Below are positions 2,919-57,932 of a stretch of DNA of 60,778 nucleotides, piece after piece. A program made the translations under genes and the position numbers. Origin of the DNA: Patescibacteria group bacterium (GTDB lineage Bacteria; Patescibacteriota; Minisyncoccia; UBA6257; 1-14-0-10-40-38); assembly GCA_038064975.1 (NCBI GenBank), contig JBBTRX010000002.1, forward strand, positions 259,278 through 320,055, in the 5' to 3' direction. The notes beneath the pieces were generated by a model that saw nothing but the letters and a program-made list of their open reading frames with translations, was not told the origin of the DNA and made no database searches. How positions within the stretch are numbered: the first letter of the stretch is position 1; every line of letters begins with the position of its first letter.

Positions 2919-4406
2919 TCATTGCCGCGTGGAACGCAGAATGGAGTCGGGAAGCCCTTGTCCCATGGAGTGATCGTAGAGGATTGGAGCTGCGTCTGTT
3001 TGAAATTCTTGTCCAAGCTTCTTGCGAAGCTCAGCTTCGGTTTCGAAACGGAGAACAGTCAGATTGTCAGCGGTAAGAGCGTCGGTCCACGCATGGAACT
3101 TATTTAGTCCCAATCGATCTCCGCGATCACCTTTGTAATACATAAAATCTTCCGTGTAATCAAAGTTGCGCGAATAAAGTCGGTCACCGTTTTTTGCGGT
3201 AAAAACAAAGACATCTGAGTCGACTTCATGCGGTATCGCCCAATCAAAGTAGGGCGTGCCCGGATACACAGTAATCCGTGTAAGATCAAAAGATTCAGGA
3301 TGGATTTCCAGAATCCAATCCATCGTTTCACGGATTGTCGCTTCTGTCTCTCCTGCATGCCCAATGGACATCAATGCCTTTGTGCGAAGACCATGCCGGC
3401 GGGCAATTGCTACACATCTATTATTATCTTCAAGCGTTGCTTTCTTGTTGATGTTCTCGAGAATACGCGGGGAACCGGATTCAAATCCCGTAAGAATTTC
3501 CCTAAACCCAGCTTCTTTCATTGCTTCCGCCTGGTCATCCGTAAAGAGCTCTGCCTTGATAAATCCTCTGAGTCTCCATTCGACGCCGAGATCTTTTCCT
3601 AAGTGCGCAATAGCTTGCATGAGTTCGATCATGCGAGGGTTGACGTTGAGTTCGTCGTCATAAAGCATTATTGCGCGAAAGCCATACCGTTCATAGATAT
3701 GACGGAATTCAGCAATGACGCTCTCGGTGGACCGAAGCCTTACTTTACGCAAGAAAGGCGACTCGCGTCCTCCACAGAAGGCACAGCCGAAGGGGCAGCC
3801 CAGTTGGCAGATCATGCTAAGAGCAGAGACGCCGTCGATTTTATAGTGATAACTATTGATATCAACGAGGTGTCGTGCCGGCAACGGAAGTTCAGTCAGC
3901 TGATTCTTCGTAAGAAAACTTGTCGATTTCGGATCATCGGCATCAATGATTTTTGGAGAATTTTCTCTGAGGGCATCAAACACTGCAAGTTCGCCATCCC
4001 CCATAACAAAAATATCAAAGTAGGATTCAAGTTGCTTGAATGCGAGTACGCCGCGTCCTTCAATGCCCTTCGCGACTTCGCGTCGGCGGGGAATATTGAC
4101 GAGCGTGATATGAGGTCCGCCCAGAATCAAGCGAATGCTCGGACGAAGCTTTCTGATTTCCTTTGCAATTTCCGTGGCAGCAGGAATTTGGGGGCTAGTA
4201 GCGGTAAATCCAATGTGGGATGGAGTATGCTCCATAACGTAGGATCGAACACTGTCCAGATAATTACCGACACCCGAGAGATCAAGGACGTCTACAAGAA
4301 TGTCCTTTTGTTCAAGTATAGCGGCAACCTTGAGGATGCCGATATGCACAAAGAACCGCTCGTCCGAAAGGATGAGCGACGGCGGAATCACAAGTCCTAT
4401 TCTCAT
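2919..4406 (-). CDS. B12-binding-domain radical SAM protein
   Basis: N-terminal cobalamin-binding-like Rossmann segment (MRIGLVIPP...LILGGPHITL), followed by the radical SAM cluster motif CPFGCAFCGG (CxxxCxxC). Stop is TGA. Sits antisense to the flanking genes. Confidence 0.8.
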   Translation of the reverse strand: MRIGLVIPPSLILSDERFFVHIGILKVAAILEQKDILVDVLDLSGVGNYLDSVRSYVMEHTPSHIGFTATSPQIPAATEIAKEIRKLRPSIRLILGGPHITLVNIPRRREVAKGIEGRGVLAFKQLESYFDIFVMGDGELAVFDALRENSPKIIDADDPKSTSFLTKNQLTELPLPARHLVDINSYHYKIDGVSALSMICQLGCPFGCAFCGGRESPFLRKVRLRSTESVIAEFRHIYERYGFRAIMLYDDELNVNPRMIELMQAIAHLGKDLGVEWRLRGFIKAELFTDDQAEAMKEAGFREILTGFESGSPRILENINKKATLEDNNRCVAIARRHGLRTKALMSIGHAGETEATIRETMDWILEIHPESFDLTRITVYPGTPYFDWAIPHEVDSDVFVFTAKNGDRLYSRNFDYTEDFMYYKGDRGDRLGLNKFHAWTDALTADNLTVLRFETEAELRKKLGQEFQTDAAPILYDHSMGQGLPDSILRSTRQ

Positions 4407-39300: not shown

Positions 39301-39948
39301 ATGCAAGTTATTCCTGCCATCAATGCAGCTTCGTACGAAGAAGCGAAAGAACATCTCCAAAAAATCGCGCGTACGGGAGCGCAAATGATTCATATTGATA
39401 TCGTTGACGGCAAATTCGCGCCGAATGTTACGTGGGGAAGCCCCGAGGAACTGAATCGCCTTTTTGCTGAAATCGGATTTCATCCGAATTTTGAATTACA
39501 TCTCATGACAGAAAATACCGAGCGCAGTTTGGAAACGTGGTGCTCGGTTCATCCTCATCGCGTCATTGTACACGCGGAAGGATTAAGTGATGTCCGTTTC
39601 GCGGCGAATGCGTGCAACGGATGCGATGCAGAACTTATGATCGCAATCCGCCCGGGAACGCCCGTTGAGGTATTGATGAGTTTCGGCGAGATGACGAATG
39701 CGTTTCAAGTACTTGCTGTTGATCCCGGAAAGGCTGGGCAAAAATTTCAGGAAGGAGTTATTCACAAAATTGAAACGTTACGAAAGCAGTATCCCGGTGC
39801 TATAATTGAAGTAGATGGAGGCATTACGCCCGATATTGCTCGGCGTTGCAAAAGTGCCGGAGCGAATAATTTTGTTTCTGCGTCGTTCATTATGAATCAT
39901 AGCGATCCGAAGGTCGCGTATGAAACCTTACTCGCTACGATCGGATAA
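39301..39948 (+). CDS. rpe: ribulose-phosphate 3-epimerase (divergent)
   Basis: VIPAINAASY, MIHIDIVDGKFAPNVTWG, ELHLM and IEVDGGIT follow the Rpe TIM-barrel pattern. ATG 39301 is preferred over the GTG at 39268. Confidence 0.7.
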   Translation: MQVIPAINAASYEEAKEHLQKIARTGAQMIHIDIVDGKFAPNVTWGSPEELNRLFAEIGFHPNFELHLMTENTERSLETWCSVHPHRVIVHAEGLSDVRFAANACNGCDAELMIAIRPGTPVEVLMSFGEMTNAFQVLAVDPGKAGQKFQEGVIHKIETLRKQYPGAIIEVDGGITPDIARRCKSAGANNFVSASFIMNHSDPKVAYETLLATIG

Positions 39949-39958
39949 ATCACTGTGT

Positions 39959-40822
39959 ATGATAGAAGTACTTCACGACGAAAAAGTAAAATTTCTGGAA
40001 GAGAAAGCGAACGAAATCCGCCAGGATATTATTGCGATGCTCGTTGAAGCCGGATCGGGCCATTCAGCCGGACCGTTGGGTATGGCGGATGTTTTTACGG
40101 CATTGTATTTTCATGTTTTGAATCACAATCCGCAGAATCCCGAGTGGCCGGATAGAGATCGTCTCGTTCTTTCTAACGGACACATTTGCCCAGTGCTCTA
40201 TGTTACGCTCGCGCACGCAGGATATTTCCCTACGTCAGAATTAAAAACGTTGCGTAAGTTTGGCACACGGCTCCAAGGGCATCCGCACCGAGGAGCTTTG
40301 CCTGGAATAGAAACAACTTCCGGTCCCTTAGGATCTGGTCTTTCCCAATCCGCGGGTATGGCGCTTGCCGCACGCATGGACAATAAAAAGCATCGCATCT
40401 ATTGTTTAACCTCTGACGGAGAACACGATGCGGGGAATATTTGGGAAGCAGTAATGTTCGCCGGCAAATATCGGCTGAATAATCTGATTCAGATTATGGA
40501 TCGTAATAACATTCAAATTGATGGCTATACGGAAGACATTATGCCGCTCGAGCCATTGCGCGCGAAATACGAAGCTTTTAATTGGAATGTTATTGATGTT
40601 GATGGTCACAACGTCCGCGACATCGTTTCTGCGGCGCACGAAGCGAAAGCAATTTACGAAAAGCCAACGCTCGTAATTGCACACACAATTCCCGGGAAGG
40701 GAGTAAGTTTTATGGAATCAGATTATACTTGGCATGGGAAGCCGCCCAATGCTGAAGAGGCGAAAAAAGCGCTTGTAGAATTAAGAACGCTTGCCGGAAG
40801 AATAAAGTCGGAGCATGAATAG
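39959..40822 (+). CDS. transketolase, N-terminal (thiamine-diphosphate-binding) subunit
   Basis: GSGHSAGPLGMADVFTALYF, LSNGHICPVLY, GPLGSGLSQSAGMA and LTSDGEHDAGNIWEA are split-type transketolase N-subunit motifs. Confidence 0.9.
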   Translation: MIEVLHDEKVKFLEEKANEIRQDIIAMLVEAGSGHSAGPLGMADVFTALYFHVLNHNPQNPEWPDRDRLVLSNGHICPVLYVTLAHAGYFPTSELKTLRKFGTRLQGHPHRGALPGIETTSGPLGSGLSQSAGMALAARMDNKKHRIYCLTSDGEHDAGNIWEAVMFAGKYRLNNLIQIMDRNNIQIDGYTEDIMPLEPLRAKYEAFNWNVIDVDGHNVRDIVSAAHEAKAIYEKPTLVIAHTIPGKGVSFMESDYTWHGKPPNAEEAKKALVELRTLAGRIKSEHE

Positions 40823-40882: not shown

Positions 40883-41809
40883 ATGAAAAGCACACCAAAA
40901 GACGTATTTCTCCATCTGCTTGCGATTATCACACTGTATGTTTCGGCGGTGAGCCTTCTCATACTTCTTTTTCAATATATTAACGTTGCGTTTCCTGACG
41001 CGCTCAATTCCTACAGGGACTATGGTGGAATGATCCGTTCGGCGCTTGCCGCGCTGATTATTGTATTCCCGGTATTCTTCTGGGTTTCTACACTACTTGA
41101 ACGGGAACGTACGAAGAATCCTGAGCGCGCAAATCTCTGGATTCGCCGCTGGCTCATTTCATTTACATTATTTGTTGCAGCTCTCGCCATCATCGGAGAC
41201 TTAATAACCCTGATTAGATTCTTTCTGGAAGGAGAAATTACGATCCGTTTTATTCTAAAAGTACTCGCGGTCTTCGCGGTTGCCGGATCTATCTTTGGAT
41301 ATTATCTTGCGGATTTTCGTAGGCAAGGTTCTGCTGCGATGCCGGCTCGGTCTAAAATGCTGGTATGGATTGCTACGGGAGGAGTGTGCCTTGCTATCAT
41401 CTCCGGATTTTTTGTCGCAGGGTCCCCGTTTCGCCAGCGCGAAATTAGGTTTGACCAAACAAGAGTTGCTAACTTACAGGAGATTCAATGGAGAATCGTG
41501 AATTACTGGCAACAAAAAGATGTTTTGCCAAAAACCCTTGCTGATTTAGAGGACAGCATTTCAGGATTCATCGTTCCACAGGATCCGGAGACAGGACTGC
41601 CGTATGAATATAACGTCCAAGGAGCGCTCTCGTTTGAACTCTGTGCGGACTTTCTGCGACCTGCCACCGATGCGGTTATAGGTCGTTCAACTCCTTTTCC
41701 TGCAGTGCCGGGCGAAGGTTTGGACACATGGAATCATCCCGCTGGATACTTTTGTTTTGAACGGACGATTGACCCGGATTTATACGGAAATCCTCCTCAA
41801 AAATTATAA
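40883..41809 (+). CDS. DUF5671-family membrane protein
   Basis: N-terminal KDVFLHLLAIITLYVSAVSLLILLFQYINVAFPD and a 5-6 TM core, typical of the DUF5671 proteins common in CPR. C-terminal soluble domain. Confidence 0.65.
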   Translation: MKSTPKDVFLHLLAIITLYVSAVSLLILLFQYINVAFPDALNSYRDYGGMIRSALAALIIVFPVFFWVSTLLERERTKNPERANLWIRRWLISFTLFVAALAIIGDLITLIRFFLEGEITIRFILKVLAVFAVAGSIFGYYLADFRRQGSAAMPARSKMLVWIATGGVCLAIISGFFVAGSPFRQREIRFDQTRVANLQEIQWRIVNYWQQKDVLPKTLADLEDSISGFIVPQDPETGLPYEYNVQGALSFELCADFLRPATDAVIGRSTPFPAVPGEGLDTWNHPAGYFCFERTIDPDLYGNPPQKL

Positions 41810-42247: not shown

Positions 42248-43240
42248 ATGTTGCATCCTGATTCACGATTAAATACGCATATCTTTGATGACGATGTTGA
42301 GCAGGTCCCCGTCCGTAACGGATACGGCGAGGGCTTGCTTCTTGCCGGTGAGGAAAATGAAAATGTCGTAGTGCTCTGTGCTGATCTTACGGAATCAACG
42401 CGCTCCGAAGGATTCGCAAAAAAGTTTCCCAAACGTTTCGTTGAAATGGGAGTCGCGGAACAGAATCTTGCCACTGTCGCTGCCGGGATGGCGATGAGTG
42501 GCAAGGTCCCATTTATTTCTTCATATGCTTCTTTTTCTCCGGGTAGAAATTGGGAGCAAATCCGTACTACTGCGGCATATAATAATGCGAACGTTAAAAT
42601 CGCGGGTGCACATGCGGGTATTTCCGTTGGACCCGATGGAGCAACGCATCAGGCGGTTGAAGACGTTGCTATCATGCGCGTAATTGCCGGCATGAAAGTA
42701 TTTGTTCCGTGCGACGTCCATGAAGCCCGAAAGGCAACAGCTACCGCGGCAAAGATTTTGGGTCCGGTATATATGCGCTTTGCGCGGGAGAAAACTCCAG
42801 TGATCACGACGCGAGAAACACCTTTTGTTCCAGGTAAGGCAATCTTGCTCTGGCAGGGCAAAAAACCTGAATGTCTTATTGTAGGAGCAGGTCCTTTGCT
42901 CTACCAAGCACTCAAAGCTGCGCATGCACTGGAAGAAGAAGGTCTAAGTGTTGTGGTTCTCAATATGCATACAATAAAGCCGCTTGATGAAGAGAAGCTA
43001 GTTCAATTCGCAAAAAAATGCGGAGCGGTTGTTACGGTGGAGGAGCATCAAGTGTTGGGTGGGCTTGGCGGAGCAGTTGCAGAACTCTTAGGTAAGAAGT
43101 GTCCTGTCCCTATTGAATACATCGGCATGCAGGACACCTTCGGAGAATCGGGCCAGCCTGCAGAACTTATCATAAAGTATGGAATGGATACGAAAGATAT
43201 TATGCGCGCAGTAAAACGCGCAGTGAAAAGAAAAGAGTAG
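42248..43240 (+). CDS. transketolase, C-terminal (pyrimidine-binding plus C-terminal domain) subunit
   Basis: NGYGEGLLLAGEENENVVVLCADLTESTRSEGFAKKFPKRFVEMGVAEQNLATVAAGMA and GATHQAVEDVAIMRVIAGM. Confidence 0.9.
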   Translation: MLHPDSRLNTHIFDDDVEQVPVRNGYGEGLLLAGEENENVVVLCADLTESTRSEGFAKKFPKRFVEMGVAEQNLATVAAGMAMSGKVPFISSYASFSPGRNWEQIRTTAAYNNANVKIAGAHAGISVGPDGATHQAVEDVAIMRVIAGMKVFVPCDVHEARKATATAAKILGPVYMRFAREKTPVITTRETPFVPGKAILLWQGKKPECLIVGAGPLLYQALKAAHALEEEGLSVVVLNMHTIKPLDEEKLVQFAKKCGAVVTVEEHQVLGGLGGAVAELLGKKCPVPIEYIGMQDTFGESGQPAELIIKYGMDTKDIMRAVKRAVKRKE

Positions 43241-48134: not shown

Positions 48135-48539
48135 ATGAACAACCCCCCTCTTCTTCTCATCATAGATGATGATCGTGAGTTTCAGGAAGTGCTCGTCTCA
48201 AAATTCAAGGCGAGCGGATTTCAAGTTCAAATCGCAAATGATGGAGAAGAGGCAGTTAAAAAAGCAAAAGAGTTTTTACCCGATCTCATTTTAATGGATG
48301 TTAAGATGCCAAAAATGGATGGCGTAGGAGCACTCTTAAAAATGAAAGATGATCCTCAAGTCAAAAATATTAAGGTGATCCTTTTGACCGCATTTGGGGA
48401 TCCTCAGCAGGAAATTTATTCTACAGACAAGCGTTTCGCGCAGGAACTCGGTGCCCATGAATATCTTTTAAAGACGCAAGATTTGGATGATATTGTGGCG
48501 CGCGTTAAGGCGTCTCTCGCGGAAGCAGGGAAAAAATAA
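48135..48539 (+). CDS. stand-alone response-regulator receiver (CheY-like) protein
   Basis: LLIIDDDREF, phospho-acceptor DLILMDVKMPKMDG, LLTAF and YLLK. No output domain. Confidence 0.85.
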   Translation: MNNPPLLLIIDDDREFQEVLVSKFKASGFQVQIANDGEEAVKKAKEFLPDLILMDVKMPKMDGVGALLKMKDDPQVKNIKVILLTAFGDPQQEIYSTDKRFAQELGAHEYLLKTQDLDDIVARVKASLAEAGKK

Positions 48540-48547
48540 TTTTAATT

Positions 48548-48943
48548 ATGCACAATCCGCCGGTCATCTTGATAGCCGACGATGACCCGGGATTCCAGGA
48601 AATCGTTGGCACGAAATTAAAACGCAACGGCTTTGCCGTTGCGGAGGCTCATGATGGAAAAGAGGCCGTTGAAAAAGCCAAAAATCTTCACCCAGATTTA
48701 ATTGTGATGGATATTAATATGCCGAACGAAAACGGGACGGAGGCGGTTTTAGATATGAAAGCAAATCCGGAAACGAGAGATATCAAGATAGTTTTTTTCA
48801 CGAGTGAAGAAGATCCATGGCCGGGACTGAAGGGCGAGAGACAGCATTCTGCTGTGGATCTCGGAGCGCAGGATTTTATTCGCAAGAATGACGATCTTGA
48901 CGTTATGGTAGAAAAAATAAAATCCTTCTTAAAAGGTAAATAG
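48548..48943 (+). CDS. stand-alone response-regulator receiver (CheY-like) protein
   Basis: ILIADDDPGF, DLIVMDINMPNENG, VFFTSE and FIRK. No output domain. Starts 8 nt after the previous receiver gene. Confidence 0.85.
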   Translation: MHNPPVILIADDDPGFQEIVGTKLKRNGFAVAEAHDGKEAVEKAKNLHPDLIVMDINMPNENGTEAVLDMKANPETRDIKIVFFTSEEDPWPGLKGERQHSAVDLGAQDFIRKNDDLDVMVEKIKSFLKGK

Positions 48944-49051
48944 AACATTAGGAAAGGGCTTCGAGGAGCGAAGAGCGACGAAGATGTCGCGACTTAGTAA
49001 AGTGCGACGTACAATATTCATTTCTTCTGTTATAAGTTGTATAGTTTATAT

Positions 49052-50047
49052 ATGAAGCAACGCATTTTGACGGGAGATCGGCCGACCGGTCCGCTCCACC
49101 TCGGACATTATTTAGGTTCTTTGAAGCGCCGCGTTGAATTGCAGCACCAATACGAAACATTCATTCTCATCGCGGATATGCAGGGGCTTACGGATAATGC
49201 TCACGACCCGCAAAAAATAGGAGGGAACGTGTTGGAGGTTGCACTTGATTATCTTGCGACAGGTATTGACCCGGACGCAGCAACGATAGTAGTGCAATCG
49301 GAGGTTCCTGAAATTGCGGAGCTTGCGCTTTTGTATATGAATATCGTTACGCTCTCAAGACTCAAGCAAAACCCAACGCTTAAAACCGAGATGAAGCAGA
49401 AAGGATTCGGAGAATCTGTTCCGTTTGGTTTTCTTGCATATCCGGTGAGTCAGGCGGCAGATATTACGGCATTTCAAGCAAATCTTGTTCCTGTAGGTGA
49501 GGATCAACTGCCGATGATAGAGCAGGCACGGGATATTGTTAAAAAATTTAATGGCCTGTATGGCAAAACACTTGTAGAGCCGGAAGCGATGCTATCGGCT
49601 TATCCTCGCCTCTTGGGAACGGACGGGAAAGAAAAAATGTCTAAATCGCTGGGTAACGTGATTAATCTTTCGGATAGCGCGGAGGCAGTTCGCATGAAAG
49701 TAATGAAAATGTATACCGATCCTGCGCGGAAGCGTGCCACCGATCCCGGAAAAGTTGAAGGGAATCCGGTATTCACATATTTAGACGCTTTTGATCCATA
49801 TGAACGCGATGTCGCGGAACTTAAGGACCGCTATCGCAAAGGCTTGGTAGGGGACGTGGAAGTTAAAGAGCGTCTCGTACAAAGTTTGAATTTATTTTTA
49901 GAGCCGATGCGTCGGCGGAGAGAGGAATACGCAAATCATCCGAAAAAAGTTTGGAAAATCCTAAGAAGCGGTTCGGAGCACGGACGCGAAGTCGCGAGCG
50001 AAACTCTCTCTCTCGTCAAAAAAGCAATGCACATTAAGTATTGGTAA
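49052..50047 (+). CDS. trpS: tryptophan--tRNA ligase
   Basis: [20 protein letters not shown] (HIGH region), [17 protein letters not shown] and KMSKS. ATG 49052 is preferred over 49037. Confidence 0.9.
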
Positions 50048-50049
50048 AT

Positions 50050-51102
50050 ATGGAAGAACTTTCTCGTTCTTATTTGAAACAATTTTCGGAATTTAAAAAT
50101 CATAAAGCGGTTTATCGATTTGAAGATGCGGCTACGGAACTCAAGGGTTTTATTGCGATTCATAACGATAATCTAGGGCCCGCAACTGGGGGAACACGAA
50201 TGTTTCCATACCCCTCAGAGGAAGATGCATTGCGGGACGTTCTCAAGCTTTCTCGCGCGATGACTTATAAATGCACTATGGCAGGTGTGCGGCATGGTGG
50301 GGGGAAAGCGGTTATTATTGGAAATCCTAATACAGACAAAACAGAGCGATTAATTCGTGCGTATGCGCGAAAAATTGGAGAACTCAAAGGTGTGTATTCC
50401 ACCGGAGAAGATGTTGGTATTAGTGAAGCCGATGTGCAAATTATGATGCAGGAGGCGCCTTGTTTTGTTGGTAAGACTGGTGTTGCCGGCGATCCATCCC
50501 CGTTTGCTTCTAAGAGCACATTTCTTGCGATGCAGTCGGCAAGCGAAGAAGTTTTTGGCGGTTCTCTTCAGGGTAAGCGAATCGCAGTTAAGGGTATAGG
50601 GAAAGTAGGTGGAGAACTTATTCGCTTGCTTGTTGGGGCGGGCGCGCATGTTACTGTTGCTGATATTCGGGATGAAGCCGTACAGAAACTTGCTTCATCT
50701 CCCTCTATTAATAAAGGAGATACCCGAACTATTCATGCGATTGAGGCGGATATCTTTGCGCCGTGTGCGATGGGTGGAGACTTAACGCTTTCATCGATTC
50801 AAGGAATTAAAGCAAAACTAATTTGCGGTGCGGCAAATAATCAGCTTGCATCTGACGAAATTGGAGATGCGCTCTGGAACATGGGGAAAATATATATTCC
50901 CGATTATGTCGCAAACATGGGTGGGCTCATCAATGTCGTTGACGAACTTGAACAAGGTGGATATAGTCGAGATCGTGTTGAAGAACGTATCCAAAGTGTT
51001 GTGAAAAAAGTGAAAACCATCCTCCGTGTAGCTAAAGAAAAAAATATCTCCCCGCATCGGATAGCCGATACAATGGCGGAGAGTATCTTTATGAATGTCT
51101 AA
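50050..51102 (+). CDS. Glu/Leu/Phe/Val dehydrogenase-family enzyme (leucine dehydrogenase-like)
   Basis: GPATGGTRMFPY, the catalytic-Lys region MAGVRHGGGKAVI and the GIGKVGGELIRLL NAD fold. ATG 50050 follows the trpS stop. Confidence 0.8.
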   Translation: MEELSRSYLKQFSEFKNHKAVYRFEDAATELKGFIAIHNDNLGPATGGTRMFPYPSEEDALRDVLKLSRAMTYKCTMAGVRHGGGKAVIIGNPNTDKTERLIRAYARKIGELKGVYSTGEDVGISEADVQIMMQEAPCFVGKTGVAGDPSPFASKSTFLAMQSASEEVFGGSLQGKRIAVKGIGKVGGELIRLLVGAGAHVTVADIRDEAVQKLASSPSINKGDTRTIHAIEADIFAPCAMGGDLTLSSIQGIKAKLICGAANNQLASDEIGDALWNMGKIYIPDYVANMGGLINVVDELEQGGYSRDRVEERIQSVVKKVKTILRVAKEKNISPHRIADTMAESIFMNV

Positions 51103-51148
51103 GAGGCGTGATTTTTCAGACTGAATTTGCTACACTTTGAGATGATTT

Positions 51149-51166
51149 AGTTCGTTTTAACGAACT
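51149..51166. promoter_or_regulatory. perfect 18-nt palindrome AGTTCGTTTTAACGAACT immediately upstream of the PaaK-like gene
   Basis: AGTTCGTT/AACGAACT half-sites separated by TT. It ends 9 nt before ATG 51176, occupying the expected ribosome-binding region. Confidence 0.45.
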
Positions 51167-51175
51167 ATTGGATCT

Positions 51176-52684
51176 ATGCTTTATTCCGGTAACGAACAGA
51201 TTTCCGCTCACGACATTCTCCAGTCTATTAAAAGCAAGAAGAGTGCTTTTTGGGAAACAGAGCGCGAACAGCGCGCTTTGGAGCTTTTTCATGCCGCTGC
51301 AAAGCGCGTTCCCGCATATAAAGATTTTTTAAAGAAAAATAGCATTCAACCGGCAAAGATAAAAACGTTTTCAGATTTTCAGTCAGTCCCTATTGTTAGT
51401 AAAAAAGACTATCTCAAAGAATATCCGTTGGAAGCGGTGTGCTGGGACGGAACACTTAAAAAGCCGTTGGTTTTTACTTCTACTTCGGGCTCCACGGGAG
51501 ATCCTTTTTATTTTCCTCGTGGACATGAATTGGATTGGGAAGCATCAGTCGCTCATGAGATATTTCTTTCTCATCATCTGCAAAAAAACGATGATTCTAC
51601 CCTTGTTATTGTCGGATTTGGTATGGGTGTTTGGATTGGAGGATTAATTACTTATGAGGCATTTAACTTAGCGAGTAATAGAAAAAAACATCCCGTATCC
51701 ATTCTTACGACCGGTATTAACAAAAAAGAAATTTTTAATGCCCTTAAGAATATAGCTCCAAATTTTAAACAAGTTATTTTAGCGGGCTATCCACCGTTCT
51801 TAAAAGATATCTTAGACGAAGCAGAAAATCATGGTATTAATTTGCATAAATTAAATATTCGCCTTCTCTTTGCTGCAGAATCATTTCCAGAGACATTCCG
51901 AGATTATGTTTCTAAAAAAGCAGGGATTAGAAATCCGTATCTCGATACTTTAAATGTCTATGGCACAGCCGACATTGGAGCGATGGCATGGGAGACGCCG
52001 ACCGCGATTTTAATGCGTCGTCTAGCGATGAAGAAGAAAAAACTTTTTAATGAACTCTTTACTCCACTTGAAAAGACGCCAACGCTTACTCAATACAATC
52101 CAATGTTTGTTACCTTTGAAGAACAGAATGGGCAAGTTCTTCTCACGGGCAACAATACGATTCCGCTTGTTCGCTATGCTGTAGGCGATCACGGCGGGGT
52201 CATGAGCTATACAGAGGCAGAATATGCCATCAAAGAAAATGGATTTGATTTAAAAAAAGAAGCGGGAAAAGCGGGGATTAAAGATATTTACGAATTGCCG
52301 TTTGTATACGTGTACGAACGGAATGATTTCTCCACAACGCTATATGGTTTACAGGTATATCCGGAACCGATTCGCGAAGCCCTCTTAGAAAAGCCGATCA
52401 ATCAGTTTCTTACTGGTAAATTTACGATGCTTACAAAGTTTAGTAAAAATCATGATCAGTATTTAGAAATCAATCTTGAACTTAAGAATGGAAAAAAGCC
52501 GACAACATATTTAGAAAAGGCAACACTTCTTCGTATTGTTGCGACACTGCGTGCAAAAAATTCAGAATACCGCGAACTTTCGGATTATTTAAAAAAGCGC
52601 GCATATCCGCGACTTCATTTCTGGCCGAATGAACACCCACTCTATTTTAAATTAGGCATTAAGCAGAAGTGGGTTAAGAAATAA
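51176..52684 (+). CDS. PaaK-like adenylate-forming enzyme (phenylacetate-CoA ligase / F390-synthetase / CapK family)
   Basis: VPIVSKKDYLKEYP, then FTSTSGSTGDPFYFPR (ANL-superfamily P-loop-like motif in the PaaK arrangement), YGTADIG and LVRYAVGD. Confidence 0.7.
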   Translation: MLYSGNEQISAHDILQSIKSKKSAFWETEREQRALELFHAAAKRVPAYKDFLKKNSIQPAKIKTFSDFQSVPIVSKKDYLKEYPLEAVCWDGTLKKPLVFTSTSGSTGDPFYFPRGHELDWEASVAHEIFLSHHLQKNDDSTLVIVGFGMGVWIGGLITYEAFNLASNRKKHPVSILTTGINKKEIFNALKNIAPNFKQVILAGYPPFLKDILDEAENHGINLHKLNIRLLFAAESFPETFRDYVSKKAGIRNPYLDTLNVYGTADIGAMAWETPTAILMRRLAMKKKKLFNELFTPLEKTPTLTQYNPMFVTFEEQNGQVLLTGNNTIPLVRYAVGDHGGVMSYTEAEYAIKENGFDLKKEAGKAGIKDIYELPFVYVYERNDFSTTLYGLQVYPEPIREALLEKPINQFLTGKFTMLTKFSKNHDQYLEINLELKNGKKPTTYLEKATLLRIVATLRAKNSEYRELSDYLKKRAYPRLHFWPNEHPLYFKLGIKQKWVKK

Positions 52685-52688
52685 ATTT

Positions 52689-53729
52689 ATGGCTCATCTT
52701 GGATATGAAATAAGAAATATTAATCCAAAGGATTTTTTTCTCCAATCCTCTTCTGAGGCAAAAATTAAGTTTTTACTTCGGTATGCAGTTTTTGCGCCTT
52801 CTACACATAATAGTCAGCCATGGCTTTTTGAAATTCGAGGAAATTCATGCAAAATCTACAACGATCCAAACATTCAACTCAAAGAAGCGGATCCGATTAA
52901 TCGTGATTTATATATTAGTTTTGGATGTTTGATTGAAAATTTAATCATAACTGCGAAATATTTTGGAGTTTTGCTGGAAATAAAGTATTCAAATGAAAAA
53001 ACCCAAGAAGATTTGATTGCCGAGATTTTCTTTCAAAATCTTAATACTGTCCAAGTAACAAATATTGACCCATCACTTGAACCACTTCTCATTGCAATAA
53101 CAAAACGAGTCAATGCCCGGGGAATTTTTGAACCAACACTAATTTCCGAAGAGATAAAAAATAAGATTTCATCATTGAGCGATTTCTCAAATATCGCAAT
53201 CCATCTTGTTCAAAATAAAGAACAAATACAACACATTGCAGAGCTTACTGCAGAGGGACTGAAGCAGGCATATGCGAATCCTAGTTTTCGAAAGGAGATG
53301 TCAGAATGGATGCATAATAGTCTTTCAAAAAAAAGACGTGGTATACCAGGATATTCGCTGCGCATGCCCACGATTATATCCTTCTTCTTTCCAGCATTTA
53401 TTCGACGTTTTAATTTAAGTAAAAAAGTTGCGCAATTAAATATTAAAAGTATTGGATCGGCTCCAATAATCGCTGTTATTACGTCAAATCAGAATAGTAA
53501 GCAGGCATGGCTCGATATTGGAAGGTTATTTGAACGTATCACGCTTAATTTAAATATTCTTGGCATTAAGACGTCAATATTTGTTGCGTCTATAGAAATG
53601 GGATTTGGTGAACAAATAAAAGAAATTATTGGATCAAACAACAATCCTCAGTTTCTCTTTTGCATTGGGTATATGAATTACGAACAAAAACCAAATCTTC
53701 GCATGTCCGTTGAGGAGCGAATGAAATAG
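52689..53729 (+). CDS. nitroreductase-fold FMN oxidoreductase, Acg/Rv2032-like tandem-domain type
   Basis: LLRYAVFAPSTHNSQPWLFEIRGN resembles the Acg-family N-terminus. At 346 aa it is about twice a single nitroreductase domain. Start lies 4 nt after the upstream stop. Confidence 0.6.
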   Translation: MAHLGYEIRNINPKDFFLQSSSEAKIKFLLRYAVFAPSTHNSQPWLFEIRGNSCKIYNDPNIQLKEADPINRDLYISFGCLIENLIITAKYFGVLLEIKYSNEKTQEDLIAEIFFQNLNTVQVTNIDPSLEPLLIAITKRVNARGIFEPTLISEEIKNKISSLSDFSNIAIHLVQNKEQIQHIAELTAEGLKQAYANPSFRKEMSEWMHNSLSKKRRGIPGYSLRMPTIISFFFPAFIRRFNLSKKVAQLNIKSIGSAPIIAVITSNQNSKQAWLDIGRLFERITLNLNILGIKTSIFVASIEMGFGEQIKEIIGSNNNPQFLFCIGYMNYEQKPNLRMSVEERMK

Positions 53730-53743
53730 TATATAATCATTAT

Positions 53744-54874
53744 ATGGATAATCTTATTTCTCACCTCAAAGAAAAAGCAGAATCAGTAAATAACCCTTCC
53801 TACGAACCACCGATTTTTTTTGATCTACAAAACGTAGATGATGAAAAAAAATTAAGCGTACTCATAGATGAGAAAAAGGATATTAAAATTATTGATAGTT
53901 ATAGTGATCAGATTAAAGAATTAATTGCAGTTAACCGTCCTTCATTGCTGAAAAATCCAAAGAATATCCAAGAAGTTTTTGAAAAAACAAATAAGGATTC
54001 GCGTGATGGAGTTTGGGTATATTTTCCATGGCGTAATACCATCGTGCACATACTAAAAGAAGCCGACTATCAAAAGCTGCGTGTTTCACGAAATTATAAT
54101 CTTATTACTCGAGCTGAACAGAAAAAATTTGCTGCGGCAAAAATTGCTGTTGCTGGTCTAAATGTTGGGAATCCTGGAGCGATCTGCATCGCTCTTGAGG
54201 GTGGCGCAAGAAAGCTCATGAAGCTTGCTGATAACGATATTTTGTCTGTTTCAAATTTAAATAGGTATCGAGCAGGACTTTCCGATCTTGGGGCGAATAA
54301 AGCAGTTATTTCTGCACAGCAGGTTCATGAAACTGATCCGTATATGGGAGTTGAAGTATTTTCGCGTGGCATTAATCCAGAAAATCTTGATCAATTTTTA
54401 ATAAAACCAAGAATTGATCTTTTAATTGAAGAAATGGATAGTTTACCTCTTAAGATTGCCATTAGAGAATCTGCGCGCAAGCATCGTATCCCAACAATTA
54501 TGGTAACGGGTAACGGAGCAGGGCTCATTCTTGATGTTGAACGGTTTGATCAAAAGAAAGATTTGCCGTTGTTAAATAAATATTTGTCGGAGCGGGTGAT
54601 CGCGATGGTAAGAGGAGGTAATCTTGCAAAGTTAGGTTTCGAAGAAAAAGTTCTTCTTGCACGTGACTTTATGGGAAAAAAATATCTTACAAAACGATTA
54701 CAGACTTCTTTTATAGAAATTGGAAAAACATTAGCAAGTATCCCTCAGCTTGCAGAAGCTTCCTATTTGCGAGGATCGGTACTCGCATACGTCGCTCGTC
54801 AGATTATAGTAGGAGGTAAAATGTCCTCAGGAAGATATATTATCCAAGTTGGAGATTCTCTAAAGAAGATTTAA
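53744..54874 (+). CDS. ThiF/MoeB/E1-like adenylyltransferase-family protein (Rv1355c-like)
   Basis: WVYFPWRNTIVHIL...RNYNLITRAEQKKFAAAKIAVAGLNVGNPGA (nucleotide loop) and LADNDILSVSNLNRY (the E1 D-x-D-x-V-x-x-S-N-L-N-R motif). Confidence 0.7.
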   Translation: MDNLISHLKEKAESVNNPSYEPPIFFDLQNVDDEKKLSVLIDEKKDIKIIDSYSDQIKELIAVNRPSLLKNPKNIQEVFEKTNKDSRDGVWVYFPWRNTIVHILKEADYQKLRVSRNYNLITRAEQKKFAAAKIAVAGLNVGNPGAICIALEGGARKLMKLADNDILSVSNLNRYRAGLSDLGANKAVISAQQVHETDPYMGVEVFSRGINPENLDQFLIKPRIDLLIEEMDSLPLKIAIRESARKHRIPTIMVTGNGAGLILDVERFDQKKDLPLLNKYLSERVIAMVRGGNLAKLGFEEKVLLARDFMGKKYLTKRLQTSFIEIGKTLASIPQLAEASYLRGSVLAYVARQIIVGGKMSSGRYIIQVGDSLKKI

Positions 54875-54883
54875 AAAGAATAA

Positions 54884-54920
54884 GACCCCAACAAGCGAAT
54901 GCTCGTCGGGGTCTTTTGTT
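54884..54920. terminator. bidirectional hairpin terminator between convergent genes
   Basis: GACCCCAACAAGC-GAAT-GCTCGTCGGGGTC imperfect 13-position stem (2 mismatches), then TTTTGTTT. An A-rich run lies on the other side. Confidence 0.55.
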
Positions 54921-54922
54921 TA

Positions 54923-55858
54923 TTAGCGAAGGTTCTCGCGGAGGAATCTCTGGAAGTTCTGACCCATGATGCCTGGGAGCGTGTGCTCCGGAACGATCTC
55001 GCGAATCACGGATTCCAGAATTCGCATTCGCTCGGGACTATTCAGTTCAGCTGGTTGATCGGGGGAACGAGCCCCGATTTTTCCATCGGGATCGATCTTC
55101 GCTTTCATGAATCCAAATTGCTCTCGGAGAGCGACTGGATTCTGTTCTTGGTACGCTCCATCACTTCCGATTCCGAGATTTTCATACCCTGCAACGAGGA
55201 GAAAATACTCGAGATGATCTTGGAATGCAGCAAGAGAATTGTCCCAACCGCTCAATCCGAAGGTGATCGTGTAGAGACCCACGTATCCTCTGTTCTGGAT
55301 ACGCATTAAGGTACTCATGGGGAGATTCCTCGGATTCGGATGTTTTTCATAGATACCGGTGTGAGAAACACACACAGCTCCCATGAAGTGGTCGAGCGCC
55401 TCGGATGCAGTCCGATGTCCGGCATGCGAGAGATCGAGGATGAACCCAATATCTTCGCAATAGGACAGGAATTCTTTACCTTCACGCGTGAGCGGCAGAT
55501 CGGGATGCAGGAGTCCTCCTCCGTAGGGATTAGAATCTTGATACGCGATCTGCATGATGCGGACACCTGCATCATAGAGCATCTTGAGGTTTGAGGGCGT
55601 TGCGTCGTGCGGTGGACCTTGGAGCCCGAGCACGATACCGAGACCGTTGCCATCCACACTGTCACGCGAGGTGATGATGCGAATGCTCTGCCGCTCAAGA
55701 TCTCGTCGGAAATTCCGGACTGCGCTCAGGATTTCTTCTGTTTTCGTAAACCACGGCGGAGCCGCGGTCACGTGAGCGAGATCAAGATTGATCTCCGGGT
55801 CCAGAATCGGTGATTTTCCTTGGGGACCAAGAAAAGCGAGAGAATCTGCGTAGAACAC
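54923..55858 (-). CDS. membrane-dipeptidase (peptidase M19)-like amidohydrolase-fold protein
   Basis: GVRIMQIAYQDSNPYGGG, FILDLSHAGHRT, VCVSHTG and LGIGSDG resemble renal-dipeptidase family blocks. The N-terminal H-x-D metal motif is not evident. GTG start. Visibly more GC-rich than its neighbours. Confidence 0.55.
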   Translation of the reverse strand: MFYADSLAFLGPQGKSPILDPEINLDLAHVTAAPPWFTKTEEILSAVRNFRRDLERQSIRIITSRDSVDGNGLGIVLGLQGPPHDATPSNLKMLYDAGVRIMQIAYQDSNPYGGGLLHPDLPLTREGKEFLSYCEDIGFILDLSHAGHRTASEALDHFMGAVCVSHTGIYEKHPNPRNLPMSTLMRIQNRGYVGLYTITFGLSGWDNSLAAFQDHLEYFLLVAGYENLGIGSDGAYQEQNPVALREQFGFMKAKIDPDGKIGARSPDQPAELNSPERMRILESVIREIVPEHTLPGIMGQNFQRFLRENLR

Positions 55859-55988: not shown

Positions 55989-56333
55989 ATGAAAACATTA
56001 AGAATATTACTTTTTATTATTTTCTTTGTGGAAGGCGTAACGAAACTTATTGGCCTCCAATTTCAAACTGATTTTTTTACGGCGTGGGGTTATCCGCTTT
56101 GGTTTATGTATGTTGTTGGTGTTTTAGAACTAGCGGGAGCATTGGGGCTTCTTATGTCCAAATATAGATTGTGTGCAACTATAGGATTGCTCGGTATTAT
56201 GGTTGGCGCTTTCTATACTCATATATCTCGTAATGACCCGCCTCAAATGATGGGATTAGCGATTCTTGCTTCTACTCTTCTATCTCTCCATCTTTTTTTT
56301 CTTATAAAAAAGAATAAAGAGATTTCTATTTAG
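55989..56333 (+). CDS. DoxX-family membrane protein
   Basis: 114 aa with 4 TM: FFVEGVTKLIG...GVLELAGALGLL... Confidence 0.65.
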   Translation: MKTLRILLFIIFFVEGVTKLIGLQFQTDFFTAWGYPLWFMYVVGVLELAGALGLLMSKYRLCATIGLLGIMVGAFYTHISRNDPPQMMGLAILASTLLSLHLFFLIKKNKEISI

Positions 56334-56342
56334 AATGTTAAA

Positions 56343-57932
56343 ATGTCTATCGATTTAGCGATTACGTTAGTTGCAGCTTTCGGCATATTTTTTCTTGGAA
56401 GTATTGTATATTTTCATGATCGTAAAAGTTTTAGCAACGTACTCTTTTTTCTCATAAGTCTCTCAACTGTTTTTTGGTCATTAGCTAATTATTTTTCTTT
56501 AAATTTTGATCCCGAGCGAGTCCTATTCTGGATTAGGATGGTGCTCTTTTTTGCCGCCCCTCATGCTGTCTTATTTTCTTTATTCGCTCATAATTTTCCA
56601 AACTCAAAAATATTAATAGATAAAAAGATTCTCATATCTAGTCTAGTTTTACTTGTACTGACTATGGCTGCGACTCTTTCTCCTTTCGTTTTTTCTAATG
56701 TTGAATTTGATGGAAATCGAGTTGTACCCATACCTGGACCGCTAATGCCTCTATTTGCATTAGTTGTTTTAGGGTCATTAATATCCGGTATTTTTTTAAT
56801 TATCAAGAAATACGTGAAGGCAAAATCATCAGAAAAGATGCAATGGCGAATGATGCTTATTGGAGTTTTAACAAGCTATCTGTTCCTAATAGTAACTAAC
56901 TTTGTTTTGGTAATTTTTTTCAAAAACACATCTTTTGTTATTTTCGGTCCCTTGTACATGCTACCAACGATTATTGGTATGACGTATGCAATATTGAGAC
57001 ATCGTTTATTAAATGTTAAGACTATCGCAACCGAAGTTTTGATCTTTATTATCTTATCAATATCCCTTTTTGATATTTTTACTGCGAAGGAAGCGACGGA
57101 GATAATAATGAAAATTGCTATTTTTATTACTTTCTTTATATTCGGCCTTTTTCTTGTTCGAAGCGTTCTTCGAGAAGTCGAGCAACGTGAGAAACTGGAA
57201 TTATTAACCAAAGAGCTGGAAGAAAAGAACGAGAAGCTTGCGCTGGCGGATAAAATTAAATCGGAATTCCTTGGGTTTGCGGCTCATCAGGTTAAATCTC
57301 CAATGGCGGTTGTGAAGGGTTATGCTACGTTGATTTTTGACGGTACGTTAGGCCCGGTTTCGGAGGAGATTAAAAATAAGGCGCATAAAATTAAAGAGAC
57401 GGCAGATCGTCTCATCGCGCTCGTAACCAATTTGCTTGATATGCGGAAAATGGAAGAAGGCAAGTTGGAAATTAGGTTCGCACCGATGGATGTTTCAAAA
57501 CTTCTGCGTGAGATGGTGGAGGAGTATAAAATAGTAGGCAAAGAGAAAGGCTTAGACGTCCAGTTCGAAACGAATAAAGAATTAATTGAAATAGAAGGGG
57601 ATGAGCAAAAACTGCGCCAGGTGTTTCAGAATCTGATTGATAACTCAATTAAATACACCCCCAAAGGGTATGTGAAAATCAGCGTTAAAGACGAGGGTCA
57701 GCAAATTTTAGTTACGCTTCAAGATTCCGGCAGGGGAATGTCTCAAGAGTTACAAAGAAAGCTTTTCCAGCAATTCGTGCGAGATGAAAAGACGAAGAAT
57801 CAAGTAGATGGAACCGGTCTTGGGCTCTATTTAGCAAAACAAATCGTACTTGCGCACCATGGCGAGATTAAAGGATTTTCCGCAGGGGAAAACATGGGCA
57901 GTACGTTTACGGTACGCTTGGGTAAAAAGTAA
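56343..57932 (+). CDS. sensor histidine kinase with a polytopic N-terminal membrane domain
   Basis: About 7-8 TM, a coiled linker, H-box FLGFAAHQVKSPM, N-box NLIDNSIKYT, G1 DSGRGM and G2 GTGLGLYLAK. Confidence 0.85.
   Translation: MSIDLAITLVAAFGIFFLGSIVYFHDRKSFSNVLFFLISLSTVFWSLANYFSLNFDPERVLFWIRMVLFFAAPHAVLFSLFAHNFPNSKILIDKKILISSLVLLVLTMAATLSPFVFSNVEFDGNRVVPIPGPLMPLFALVVLGSLISGIFLIIKKYVKAKSSEKMQWRMMLIGVLTSYLFLIVTNFVLVIFFKNTSFVIFGPLYMLPTIIGMTYAILRHRLLNVKTIATEVLIFIILSISLFDIFTAKEATEIIMKIAIFITFFIFGLFLVRSVLREVEQREKLELLTKELEEKNEKLALADKIKSEFLGFAAHQVKSPMAVVKGYATLIFDGTLGPVSEEIKNKAHKIKETADRLIALVTNLLDMRKMEEGKLEIRFAPMDVSKLLREMVEEYKIVGKEKGLDVQFETNKELIEIEGDEQKLRQVFQNLIDNSIKYTPKGYVKISVKDEGQQILVTLQDSGRGMSQELQRKLFQQFVRDEKTKNQVDGTGLGLYLAKQIVLAHHGEIKGFSAGENMGSTFTVRLGKK

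Follow-up and report, generated by a model that had tools for sequence, protein, structure and literature searches.

Which pathway is served by three neighbouring genes of a patescibacterial genome that encode a ligase, a nitroreductase and an E1-like protein? Genes A (51176-52684, 502 aa), B (52689-53729, 346 aa) and C (53744-54874, 376 aa) all lie on the + strand of the window, the whole stretch of 60,778 nucleotides analysed here, with gaps of 4 nt between A and B and 14 nt between B and C. The initial annotation had described this co-oriented trio and its spacing, and both are borne out by the ORF positions and by a second gene caller, which independently called the same genes in the public copy of the contig. 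Its family calls, a PaaK-like A with the motif FTSTSGSTGDPFYFPR, an Acg-type double nitroreductase B and a ThiF protein C of the Rv1355c type, likewise hold: the motif occurs in A, and all three assignments stand in profile searches and structure matches.

Conservation of the trio across Patescibacteria, whose genomes are tiny, is strongly supported in both directions, as all three genes are found at 46 of the 50 assessable loci anchored on C and at 29/32 loci anchored on A. They share one orientation, and their arrangement varies among at least 20 gene orders, each of them patescibacterial; B and C are neighbours in nearly all genomes, and in some they are fused. Neighbourhoods were counted over the flanks of 80 C-anchored loci and gene presence over 81 loci. 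A three-gene extent proved too short, since the module runs on into a membrane histidine kinase with a 7TM region (HK; 56343..57932, + strand; Pfam HisKA_7TM, HisKA and HATPase_c). HK is the conserved last gene, displaced in the window by two inserted genes; it is present in 66/81 loci, and in 50 of these 66 it lies no more than 60 nt from the preceding A, B or C gene (median gap 7.5 nt).

The upstream dehydrogenase (DH; 50041..51102, + strand), which had been taken for a core gene, belongs to the module as well: it sits inside the module in loci with the order B-C-DH-A-HK, and elsewhere A mostly follows directly. Within the ELFV family (Pfam ELFV_dehydrog_N and ELFV_dehydrog), DH is a short amino acid dehydrogenase of the Leu/Trp/Phe type; it overlaps trpS by 7 nt and ends 73 nt upstream of A. 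Its nearest solved structures are LeuDH (3vpx, E 1e-81), TrpDH (5b37, 4e-67) and PheDH (2e-44), and its top NCBIfam model is the ScyB Trp dehydrogenase (286 bits, under the cut-off). DH occurs in 29/81 loci, and a HisC-type aminotransferase takes its place in about 13 others, so the two are interchangeable; one or the other immediately precedes A in 35 of 42 cases, the median gap being 3 nt. A, B, C and the 7TM histidine kinase, together with a dehydrogenase or aminotransferase in about 55-60% of loci, constitute one co-oriented, tightly spaced module.

C falls in the same ThiF clade as TrzS (Rv1355c). The Rv1355c family model aligns over its positions 12-341 with residues 22-375 of C (304 bits, E 2e-90), whereas the next best model reaches 60 bits, and a natural C-B fusion (locus L056) scores 534 bits against an Rv1355c equivalog cut-off of 476. 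Pfam places a ThiF match in C, which also carries an N-terminal extension of about 105 aa. The adenylation residues R116, N117, D163, D165, N171, N173, R174, K186 and D232 are invariant and align with those of TcdA, with D232 opposite the Asp of the ThiF motif; replacement of a conserved Asp of the ThiF adenylation motif in TrzS (D217A) abolishes cyclase activity (PMC12856293). The structure model (pLDDT 84) has AclA (9egb), ThiF, PaaA, MccB and TcdA as its top PDB matches. By analogy with TrzS, we propose that C would be the ATP-dependent cyclase that closes an oxazolone ring.

B, a flavin-dependent oxidase (FDO), belongs to the same superfamily subgroup as the FDO of TrzS. The FMN-type motif A36-P37-S38-x-x-N41-x-Q43-P44-W45, along with R140 and R144, is invariant among 70 homologues, and we propose B, again by analogy, as the putative C-alpha/C-beta desaturase. 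B is nearer to the Acg family model NF047509 (192 bits, cut-off 199), a family whose function is unknown, than to the Rv1355c model, whose C-terminal FDO half it matches at 72 bits, and this argues against an oxazolone product. With Acg (Rv2032) and Rv3131 it shares its top family match, its nearest solved structure (MsAcg, 2ymv) and the architecture of a monomeric double nitroreductase; however, those proteins have no known substrate and no reported ThiF partner, whereas the Acg-like B is locked to a ThiF cyclase.

The initial annotation had pointed out, correctly, that Rv1355c is a fusion of an E1 and a nitroreductase domain, and it knew of no characterised pathway. The latter statement is outdated, since work from 2021 onwards has shown that the pairing produces small-molecule oxazolones, in the synthetases OxzB (2021; bioRxiv 10.1101/2020.06.11.147165), TyzB/TyzC (2023; PMC10404671) and TrzS, which converts N-acyl-tryptophan to an oxazolone (JBC 2025, PMC12856293). 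Since these enzymes work on N-acyl amino acids and not on peptides, the analogy it drew to TOMM maturation is not the closest one. Among the homologues, ATP-dependent cyclisation and O2-dependent desaturation have been shown for N-acyl-Trp, -Tyr and -Phe.

Together, B and C are homologous to the TrzS-type oxazolone enzyme pair, in split form. Relative to TrzA/TrzS (Rv1356c/Rv1355c), the N-acyl-tryptazolone pathway of M. tuberculosis and its relatives, C corresponds to the ThiF half and B to the FDO half. The N-terminal extension is common to both, and some patescibacterial loci have the ThiF-FDO fusion as well, which passes the family cut-off. Unlike TrzS, the window has separate genes in reverse order (FDO first) and an FDO of the Acg-like subtype. 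The TyzA/TyzB/TyzC system of M. tuberculosis and OxzA/OxzB of Pseudoalteromonas rubra also combine a ThiF-like ATP-dependent cyclase with a nitroreductase-superfamily oxidase to act on a small N-acyl amino acid, and TyzB and TyzC are separate adjacent genes, as B and C are. However, those clusters, hosted by Actinomycetota and Proteobacteria, employ an AHL-synthase-like or GNAT-type acyltransferase with acyl-CoA, and a ligase, dehydrogenase or kinase partner has not been reported for them. Three features of the module are new by comparison: a PaaK-fold adenylating ligase in place of the acyl-CoA N-acyltransferase, of which the TrzA type is absent from the window; a LeuDH-type dehydrogenase or HisC-type aminotransferase directly before A; and a 7TM histidine kinase after the module.

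A is an intact adenylate-forming (ANL) ligase of the PaaK fold. Although it has no match in Pfam and only weak PaaK, FlxY and F390 matches in NCBIfam (E 1e-13 to 1e-7, far under the cut-offs), the ANL motifs S104-G105-S106-x-G108, Y262-G263, E273, D338-x-G340 and K496 are all invariant, and the AlphaFold model (pLDDT 85) matches PaaK1 and BT_0428 best, followed by AjiA1, NatL2, HCL and ClxA. A shares the two-domain ANL fold, the adenylation motifs and the C-terminal catalytic Lys with PaaK1/2, BT_0428, NatL2, AjiA1 and ClxA, but it is about 70 aa longer, is only 14-17% identical to them, and stands in neither a paa catabolic nor a benzoxazole context. Its substrate and acyl acceptor cannot be read from sequence or fold. 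Nevertheless, we propose that A makes an N-acyl amino acid, or at least an activated acyl donor: the invariant motifs and the presence of AjiA1, NatL2 and ClxA among the structural matches point to amide formation, while the top matches, which are true CoA ligases, point away from it. NatL2 and ClxA form an ester or amide bond straight from the adenylate, without CoA (PMC12519233), so that the PaaK fold can support direct coupling between an acyl-adenylate and another small molecule.

Taking these comparisons together, we lean, with caution, towards a CoA-independent route to an oxazolone derived from an N-acyl amino acid, possibly sensed by the kinase. The dehydrogenase or aminotransferase would interconvert an amino acid with a hydrophobic or aromatic side chain and the corresponding 2-oxo acid, supplying a substrate for A. 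A would adenylate a carboxylic acid and transfer its acyl moiety onto an amino acid's amino group, yielding an N-acyl amino acid without acyl-CoA, and would thereby stand in for the acyl-CoA N-acyltransferases (OxzA, TyzA, TrzA) of the known clusters. Attack by the amide oxygen, driven by the ATP-dependent cyclase C, would then give a 5(4H)-oxazolone, which B with FMN would desaturate between C-alpha and C-beta to a conjugated oxazolone; the adjacent 7TM kinase may sense this compound or one derived from it. Several observations count against this route. DH is most similar to leucine dehydrogenase, whereas the known oxazolones of the OxzB/Tyz/Trz type all derive from Tyr, Phe or Trp, and some 40% of loci have neither a dehydrogenase nor an aminotransferase within 5 kb. 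Known FDOs use O2 and many Patescibacteria live without oxygen, which likewise speaks against an oxazolone.

It is rather unlikely that A is instead an ordinary acyl- or aryl-CoA ligase feeding an N-acyltransferase encoded elsewhere, with B and C acting as in OxzAB, TyzACB and TrzAS. Phenylacetate-CoA ligases are indeed the top fold and sequence matches of A, and all characterised oxazolone clusters use acyl-CoA; yet in those clusters the acyltransferase is adjacent, whereas no acyltransferase, GNAT-type N-acyltransferases included, was found in the 60-kb window or recurred among the genes flanking the 80 loci anchored on C. Patescibacteria, moreover, are mostly without fatty-acid and acyl-CoA metabolism. 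We regard as improbable a salvage or catabolic role in place of end-product biosynthesis, whereby an N-acyl amino acid would be cyclised and desaturated, the unsaturated oxazolone hydrolysed to an N-acyl-dehydroamino acid and this broken down to a 2-oxo acid, an acid and ammonia, with the dehydrogenase or aminotransferase returning the 2-oxo acid to the L-amino acid. The tight linkage of that enzyme to the module fits such a route, as does the ready hydrolysis of oxazolones to oxidised N-acyl amino acids. So does an M19 dipeptidase gene between the module and HK in the window and in locus L004; the M19 family includes dehydropeptidase I, which is active on dehydropeptides. However, the dipeptidase is present in just 2/81 loci and looks foreign (GC 0.525), two ATP would be spent per amino acid recovered, and such a route does not account for the dehydrogenase or aminotransferase being attached to A and not to B.

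The TOMM-like model of the initial annotation, or another modification of a peptide or protein C-terminus in which A or C activates a peptide carboxylate and B oxidises an azoline-like ring, seems very improbable. MccB and PaaA, ThiF-like proteins with N-terminal extensions and peptide substrates, are among the structural matches of C, and B has a weak match to the TM1586 nitroreductase model. But the absence of YcaO, a precursor peptide and a ThiS/MoaD-like carrier reported earlier was upheld: neither YcaO nor a ThiS/MoaD-like or precursor-like ORF was found at the locus, and no free-standing ORF of at least 30 aa is conserved in the 81 loci. The score of C for the small-molecule Rv1355c clade far exceeds that for other ThiF families, and B finds its best families in Acg and FDO instead of SagB or McbC. 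It is barely credible that the genes serve a ThiF/MoeB-type pathway for a sulfur carrier or a cofactor, or form ct6A in tRNA in the manner of TcdA. Apart from the Pfam match, this reading draws on TcdA, which among solved structures is nearest in sequence to the ThiF core of C (E 3.5e-11), and on the t6A dehydratase label that some databases give to homologues; TcdA, too, performs an adenylation followed by cyclodehydration of an N-acylated amino-acid moiety (PMC12596934). TcdA nevertheless differs from C in its tRNA substrate and in having neither the N-terminal extension nor an FDO or ligase partner. The ThiF, MoeB and TcdA models give C only 18-60 bits against cut-offs of 150-650 (TcdA 40 against 304), genes for sulfur transfer (rhodanese, cysteine desulfurase or others) do not recur in the regions flanking the loci, and the obligatory partners A and B would have no explanation.

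Returning to the oxazolone route, the 7TM region of HK is as conserved as its kinase core, and HK may sense a product of the module or its derivative. The evidence for this link is adjacency, which could partly be inherited synteny, since trpS and dnaK-dnaJ also recur nearby. With a kinase and an oxazolone enzyme pair in one module, the idea that oxazolones act as signals becomes testable. Two single-domain response regulators (48135..48943, + strand; Pfam Response_reg), co-oriented and upstream of trpS-DH-A-B-C, are possible partners of HK; a regulator of the same cluster lies near the module in 15/81 loci, and their membership is uncertain. Methyltransferase, hydrolase and ABC-exporter genes are optional extras in some loci, a small-molecule context.

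The perfect 18-nt palindrome reported before A is in fact an inverted repeat (51148-51167, assigned to neither strand), TAGTTCGTT-TT-AACGAACTA, whose 9+2+9 layout has two central bases that break self-complementarity. Its last base lies 8 nt 5' of the A start codon; it is single-copy in the window, where 0 matches are expected by chance, and as RNA it folds with -11.8 kcal/mol (z = -4.2). The repeat may serve as an operator or as a hairpin in the RNA. A search of 160 related loci found it in 0/160, and it is genome-specific; being conserved in no related locus, it is no defining part of the system. The block had also been described as an AT-rich accessory island. With a GC of 0.369 it is indeed AT-richer than the genes just upstream (DH 0.445, trpS 0.467), but this value lies inside the range of the window, where 10% of all 3.7-kb segments have a GC no higher than this, and where AT-richness is equal over bases 1-20 kb. 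An accessory island is not supported, given this range and the housekeeping genes that surround the module in many lineages (grpE-dnaK-dnaJ, trpS, another tRNA synthetase and prfB). The hairpin terminator said to close the block was confirmed between C and the convergent dipeptidase gene, as a bidirectional intrinsic-terminator hairpin (54882-54915, no strand assigned) with a 15-bp stem and a folding energy of -19.1 kcal/mol (z = -4.5).

The three ORFs that the initial annotation placed together are reproduced both by an ORF scan and by a gene call publicly available for this contig, packed on the + strand with gaps of 4 and 14 nt: a PaaK-fold adenylating ligase (A; 51176-52684, 502 aa), an Acg-type double nitroreductase, here taken as a flavin-dependent oxidase or FDO (B; 52689-53729, 346 aa), and a ThiF/E1-like protein (C; 53744-54874, 376 aa). 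They had been presented as a trio without a characterised pathway. Judged by homology, the core chemistry encoded by B and C is of an already known kind, that of the oxazolone synthetases TrzS, TyzB/TyzC and OxzB. What is new is the patescibacterial architecture, of which we found no description, with a ligase in place of an acyltransferase, an ELFV-family amino acid dehydrogenase (DH) or an aminotransferase, and a 7TM membrane histidine kinase (HK).

The module is larger than the A-B-C trio, as it also includes DH or an aminotransferase, and HK. We collected 80 loci anchored on C in species-representative genomes and 80 anchored on A in metagenomes, and clustered the flanking ORFs of the 80 C-anchored loci together with the window (81 in all). 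A, B and C lie within 5 kb of each other in 46 of the 50 assessable C-anchored loci and in 29 of the 32 assessable A-anchored loci, in agreement with the proposed co-occurrence of the trio across Patescibacteria; HK is present as well in 45 and 28 of these assessable loci, and DH or the aminotransferase in 27 and 19, respectively. At least 110 species-representative genomes carry the module, as do more than 500 metagenome contigs; its genes are almost always co-oriented despite at least 20 different gene orders, and the loci all stem from Patescibacteria or from bins that are obviously mislabelled. HK, with HisKA_7TM, HisKA and HATPase_c domains, is found in 66 of the 81 clustered loci; in 50 of these 66 it begins no more than 60 nt after the final gene of the module (median gap 7.5 nt). 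Its conservation is as high in the 7TM region as in the kinase core. DH had been counted among the upstream core genes; it belongs to the module, being internal in loci of the order B-C-DH-A-HK. It is nearest to leucine dehydrogenase and then to tryptophan dehydrogenase. In about 13 loci a HisC-type aminotransferase takes its place, and DH or the aminotransferase directly precedes A in 35 of 42 cases. Optional extras with the appearance of tailoring or export functions lie between or after the module and HK, namely a methyltransferase-like ORF of about 312 aa (L014, L035, L071 and L074-L076), a clear SAM methyltransferase (L051:13719-14468), an alpha/beta hydrolase (L001:13454-14335) and an ABC exporter (L038, L072, L076, L078 and L080).

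The known systems provide the frame for reading the core enzymes. TrzS (Rv1355c) converts N-acyl-tryptophan to an oxazolone by ATP-dependent cyclisation followed by O2-dependent desaturation and works with TrzA, an acyl-CoA N-acyltransferase; substitution of a conserved Asp of the ThiF motif (D217A) abolishes its cyclase activity (PMC12856293). Oxazolones do not survive acids or alcohols (PMC12856293). TyzA/B/C (PMC10404671) and OxzA/B (bioRxiv 10.1101/2020.06.11.147165) work in the same mode, and according to a 2025 review OxzB alone among ThiF-like enzymes has known activity on a small molecule (PMC12596934). Like the present module, OxzB, TyzB-TyzC and TrzS combine a ThiF-like cyclase with an FDO, whereas here the adjacent N-acyltransferase is replaced by a PaaK-fold ligase. 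The three oxazolone papers mention neither a ligase partner, nor a kinase partner, nor Patescibacteria, and a literature search for links of Patescibacteria/CPR to oxazolones or PaaK returned nothing relevant.

The assignment of C as ThiF/Rv1355c-like was borne out. Over residues 22-375, C aligns with the N-terminal half (12-341 of 722 positions) of NF005901, the model for the Rv1355c family, at 304 bits (E 2e-90), all remaining ThiF-type models in NCBIfam score at most 60 bits, and C falls in the ThiF-like Rv1355c/OxzB clade. Across 22 homologues there is no variation at R116, N117, D163, D165, N171, N173, R174, K186 or D232. Its adenylation residues align with those of TcdA, the nearest solved sequence relative, with D232 on the TcdA motif Asp, and the adenylation site is intact, including this ThiF-motif Asp; D232 is probably the equivalent of TrzS D217. 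The canonical GxGGxG glycine loop is replaced by an invariant A-G-L-N-V-G (residues 137-142), which is specific enough to pull the family out of 185,579 genomes. An AlphaFold model of C (pLDDT 84) matches AclA, ThiF, PaaA, MccB and TcdA, with AclA (9egb) as the best structural match. The N-terminal domain has the predicted element order beta-alpha-beta-alpha-alpha-alpha-beta-beta, which differs from the canonical RRE order, and we therefore make no peptide-binding claim for C.

The description of B as an Acg-type double nitroreductase is likewise supported: with the Acg family model NF047509 it reaches 192.1 bits (positions 2-317 of 319), just short of the cut-off of 199, compared with 72 bits for the C-terminal (FDO) half of the Rv1355c model, and MsAcg is its nearest structure. 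Across 70 homologues the flavin motif APSxxNxQPW is invariant, as are two arginines. The B gene directly adjoins that of C, and the two lie at most 5 kb apart in 49 of 50 assessable loci. A natural ThiF-FDO (C-B) fusion in L056 (L056:9992-12220) reaches 534 bits, above the whole-protein Rv1355c equivalog cut-off of 476 bits, which is reached by neither of the split proteins. TrzS, OxzB and TyzC belong to the FDO-A subgroup and Acg itself to FDO-B. Two module types can be seen across the related loci (for example in L053, L080 and L056). Window-type modules carry an Acg-like FDO, located ahead of C in 63 of 71 loci, and the second type carries an FDO that is Rv1355c-like by profile score (147-190 bits, against 72 bits for the B of the window), located after C in 61 of 61 loci.

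A was correctly recognised as a PaaK-like adenylating ligase. It is modelled by AlphaFold with a PaaK fold (pLDDT 85) that matches PaaK1, BT_0428, AjiA1, NatL2, HCL and ClxA, and none of the ANL core motifs varies, among them a Lys positioned six residues before the C-terminus. At the level of family models, Pfam gives no hit for A, and the NCBIfam matches, to PaaK, FlxY and F390, are all weak, with 44-49 bits against PaaK models whose equivalog level requires at least 646-700 bits. The resemblance to PaaK is limited to the fold and the ANL motifs; A lacks the context of a paa catabolic operon, with no paaABCDE-type genes in the window or the related loci. It is this ligase that fills the acyltransferase position. 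No family of acyl-CoA-dependent N-acyltransferases of the OxzA/TyzA/TrzA kind recurs in the 80 C-anchored flanks, and when the larger ORFs of the 60-kb window were scanned with Pfam, no GNAT or N-acyl amino acid synthase appeared, nor any other hidden acyltransferase. Two PaaK-fold enzymes, NatL2 and ClxA, join adenylates to a second substrate directly. Given this precedent, the absence of an acyltransferase and the constant presence of A, it is plausible that A itself makes the N-acyl amino acid. A plain CoA ligase working with an unlinked acyltransferase is the less likely explanation; the fold search does not distinguish CoA ligases from direct amide or ester ligases.

Among other readings of the module, a peptide substrate with TOMM-type maturation would match the pairing of an E1-like protein with a nitroreductase-fold partner, and the E1-like, YcaO and SagB/McbC combination is incomplete here: no YcaO is encoded in the window or among the conserved neighbours, and no conserved free-standing precursor ORF of at least 30 aa was found. 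Recurrent small-ORF clusters of this size are shadows of larger genes, except for ribosomal protein L31. Sulfur-carrier or tRNA chemistry would fit the ThiF-like fold of C; in ThiF and MoeB models, however, C scores 18-53 bits against cut-offs of 150-650, and no ORF encodes a ThiS/MoaD-like carrier with a GG tail. The initial annotation had also seen no YcaO, precursor or carrier. Both readings are less likely than oxazolone synthesis, as is a salvage route via dehydroamino acids.

The homology of B and C to a cyclase-oxidase pair, the intact active-site motifs, the intact adenylating enzyme and the strong operon-level linkage lead us to propose oxazolone synthesis by the following route. DH or the aminotransferase would supply a 2-oxo acid or amino acid; A would form an acyl-adenylate and convert it directly to an N-acyl amino acid; C would cyclise this to an oxazolone, which B would desaturate; and HK may sense the product. 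Among the enzymatic steps of the model, the one assigned to A is the weakest, and overall the weakest inference is the link between HK and the product. As to the physiological role of oxazolones, both discovery groups speculated on signalling. It is conceivable, if rather unlikely, that the module is a self-contained signalling cassette that makes a labile N-acyl-(dehydro)amino-acid oxazolone independently of CoA, with the co-transcribed 7TM kinase as its receptor. If so, Patescibacteria would have in it their first conserved system of a small-molecule signal with its sensor, serving quorum sensing or symbiont-host sensing, and oxazolones and Acg-type flavoproteins would gain a physiological role. 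Patescibacteria have genomes of about 1 Mb and very few biosynthetic clusters. Since a five-gene module has been held together through many rearrangements in such reduced genomes, its product probably matters to their lifestyle. A synthase operon with its own sensor kinase makes the oxazolone-signalling hypothesis directly testable, and a PaaK-fold replacement of the acyltransferase would represent a new N-acyl-amino-acid synthetase that depends on ATP and needs no CoA, with potential use as a biocatalyst. Acg (Rv2032) is a dormancy-regulon protein of M. tuberculosis that is needed for virulence; an Acg-like FDO locked to a ThiF cyclase offers a functional lead for it.

The DNA around the trio was partly as first described. 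The expected terminator is a strong hairpin at 54882-54915, between C and a convergent M19 dipeptidase gene. The supposed perfect 18-nt palindrome is imperfect, being instead a 9+2+9 inverted repeat (51148-51167) upstream of A that occurs once in the window and is stable as an RNA fold (z = -4.2); as it is missing from all 160 related loci, it was rejected as a conserved operator. The trio is indeed AT-richer than the genes just upstream (GC 0.369 versus 0.445-0.467; window mean 0.410), but not an accessory island: its GC lies inside the range of the window, where 10% of segments of the same size have no higher GC, and housekeeping genes flank the module in other genomes and are syntenic across lineages.

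HK (56343-57932) is displaced in the window by two inserted genes. One encodes the M19 (renal-dipeptidase family) protein (54923-55858, - strand), with a GC of 0.525 amid a stretch of 0.34-0.39; L004 has a homologue at the equivalent position, on the + strand (L004:12597-13538), and no more than 2 of 81 loci have the gene. Dehydropeptidase I is a member of the M19 family, and hydrolysed unsaturated oxazolones are similar to its substrates. The other encodes a DoxX-family membrane protein (55989-56333) that ends 9 nt ahead of HK and was not found in any related locus. Upstream, trpS (49037-50047) overlaps DH (50041-51102) by 7 nt, and 17 of 81 loci have trpS close to the module, on one side or the other. 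A pair of adjacent single-domain response regulators without an output domain (48135-48943) is co-oriented with and upstream of trpS-DH-A-B-C, and similar regulators adjoin the module or HK in 15 of 81 loci. Elsewhere in the window, N- and C-terminal transketolase genes (39920-40822 and 42248-43240) are split by a DUF5671 gene (40883-41809) inside a run of pentose-phosphate and glycolysis genes. A large AT-rich envelope-glycan cluster (528-30326) encodes GT2 glycosyltransferases, three CDP-glycerol glycerophosphotransferase-like proteins, NeuB, a UDP-GlcNAc 2-epimerase, a cytidylyltransferase, Wzy-TPR and flippases, with a B12-binding radical SAM gene (2919-4406) on the opposite strand.
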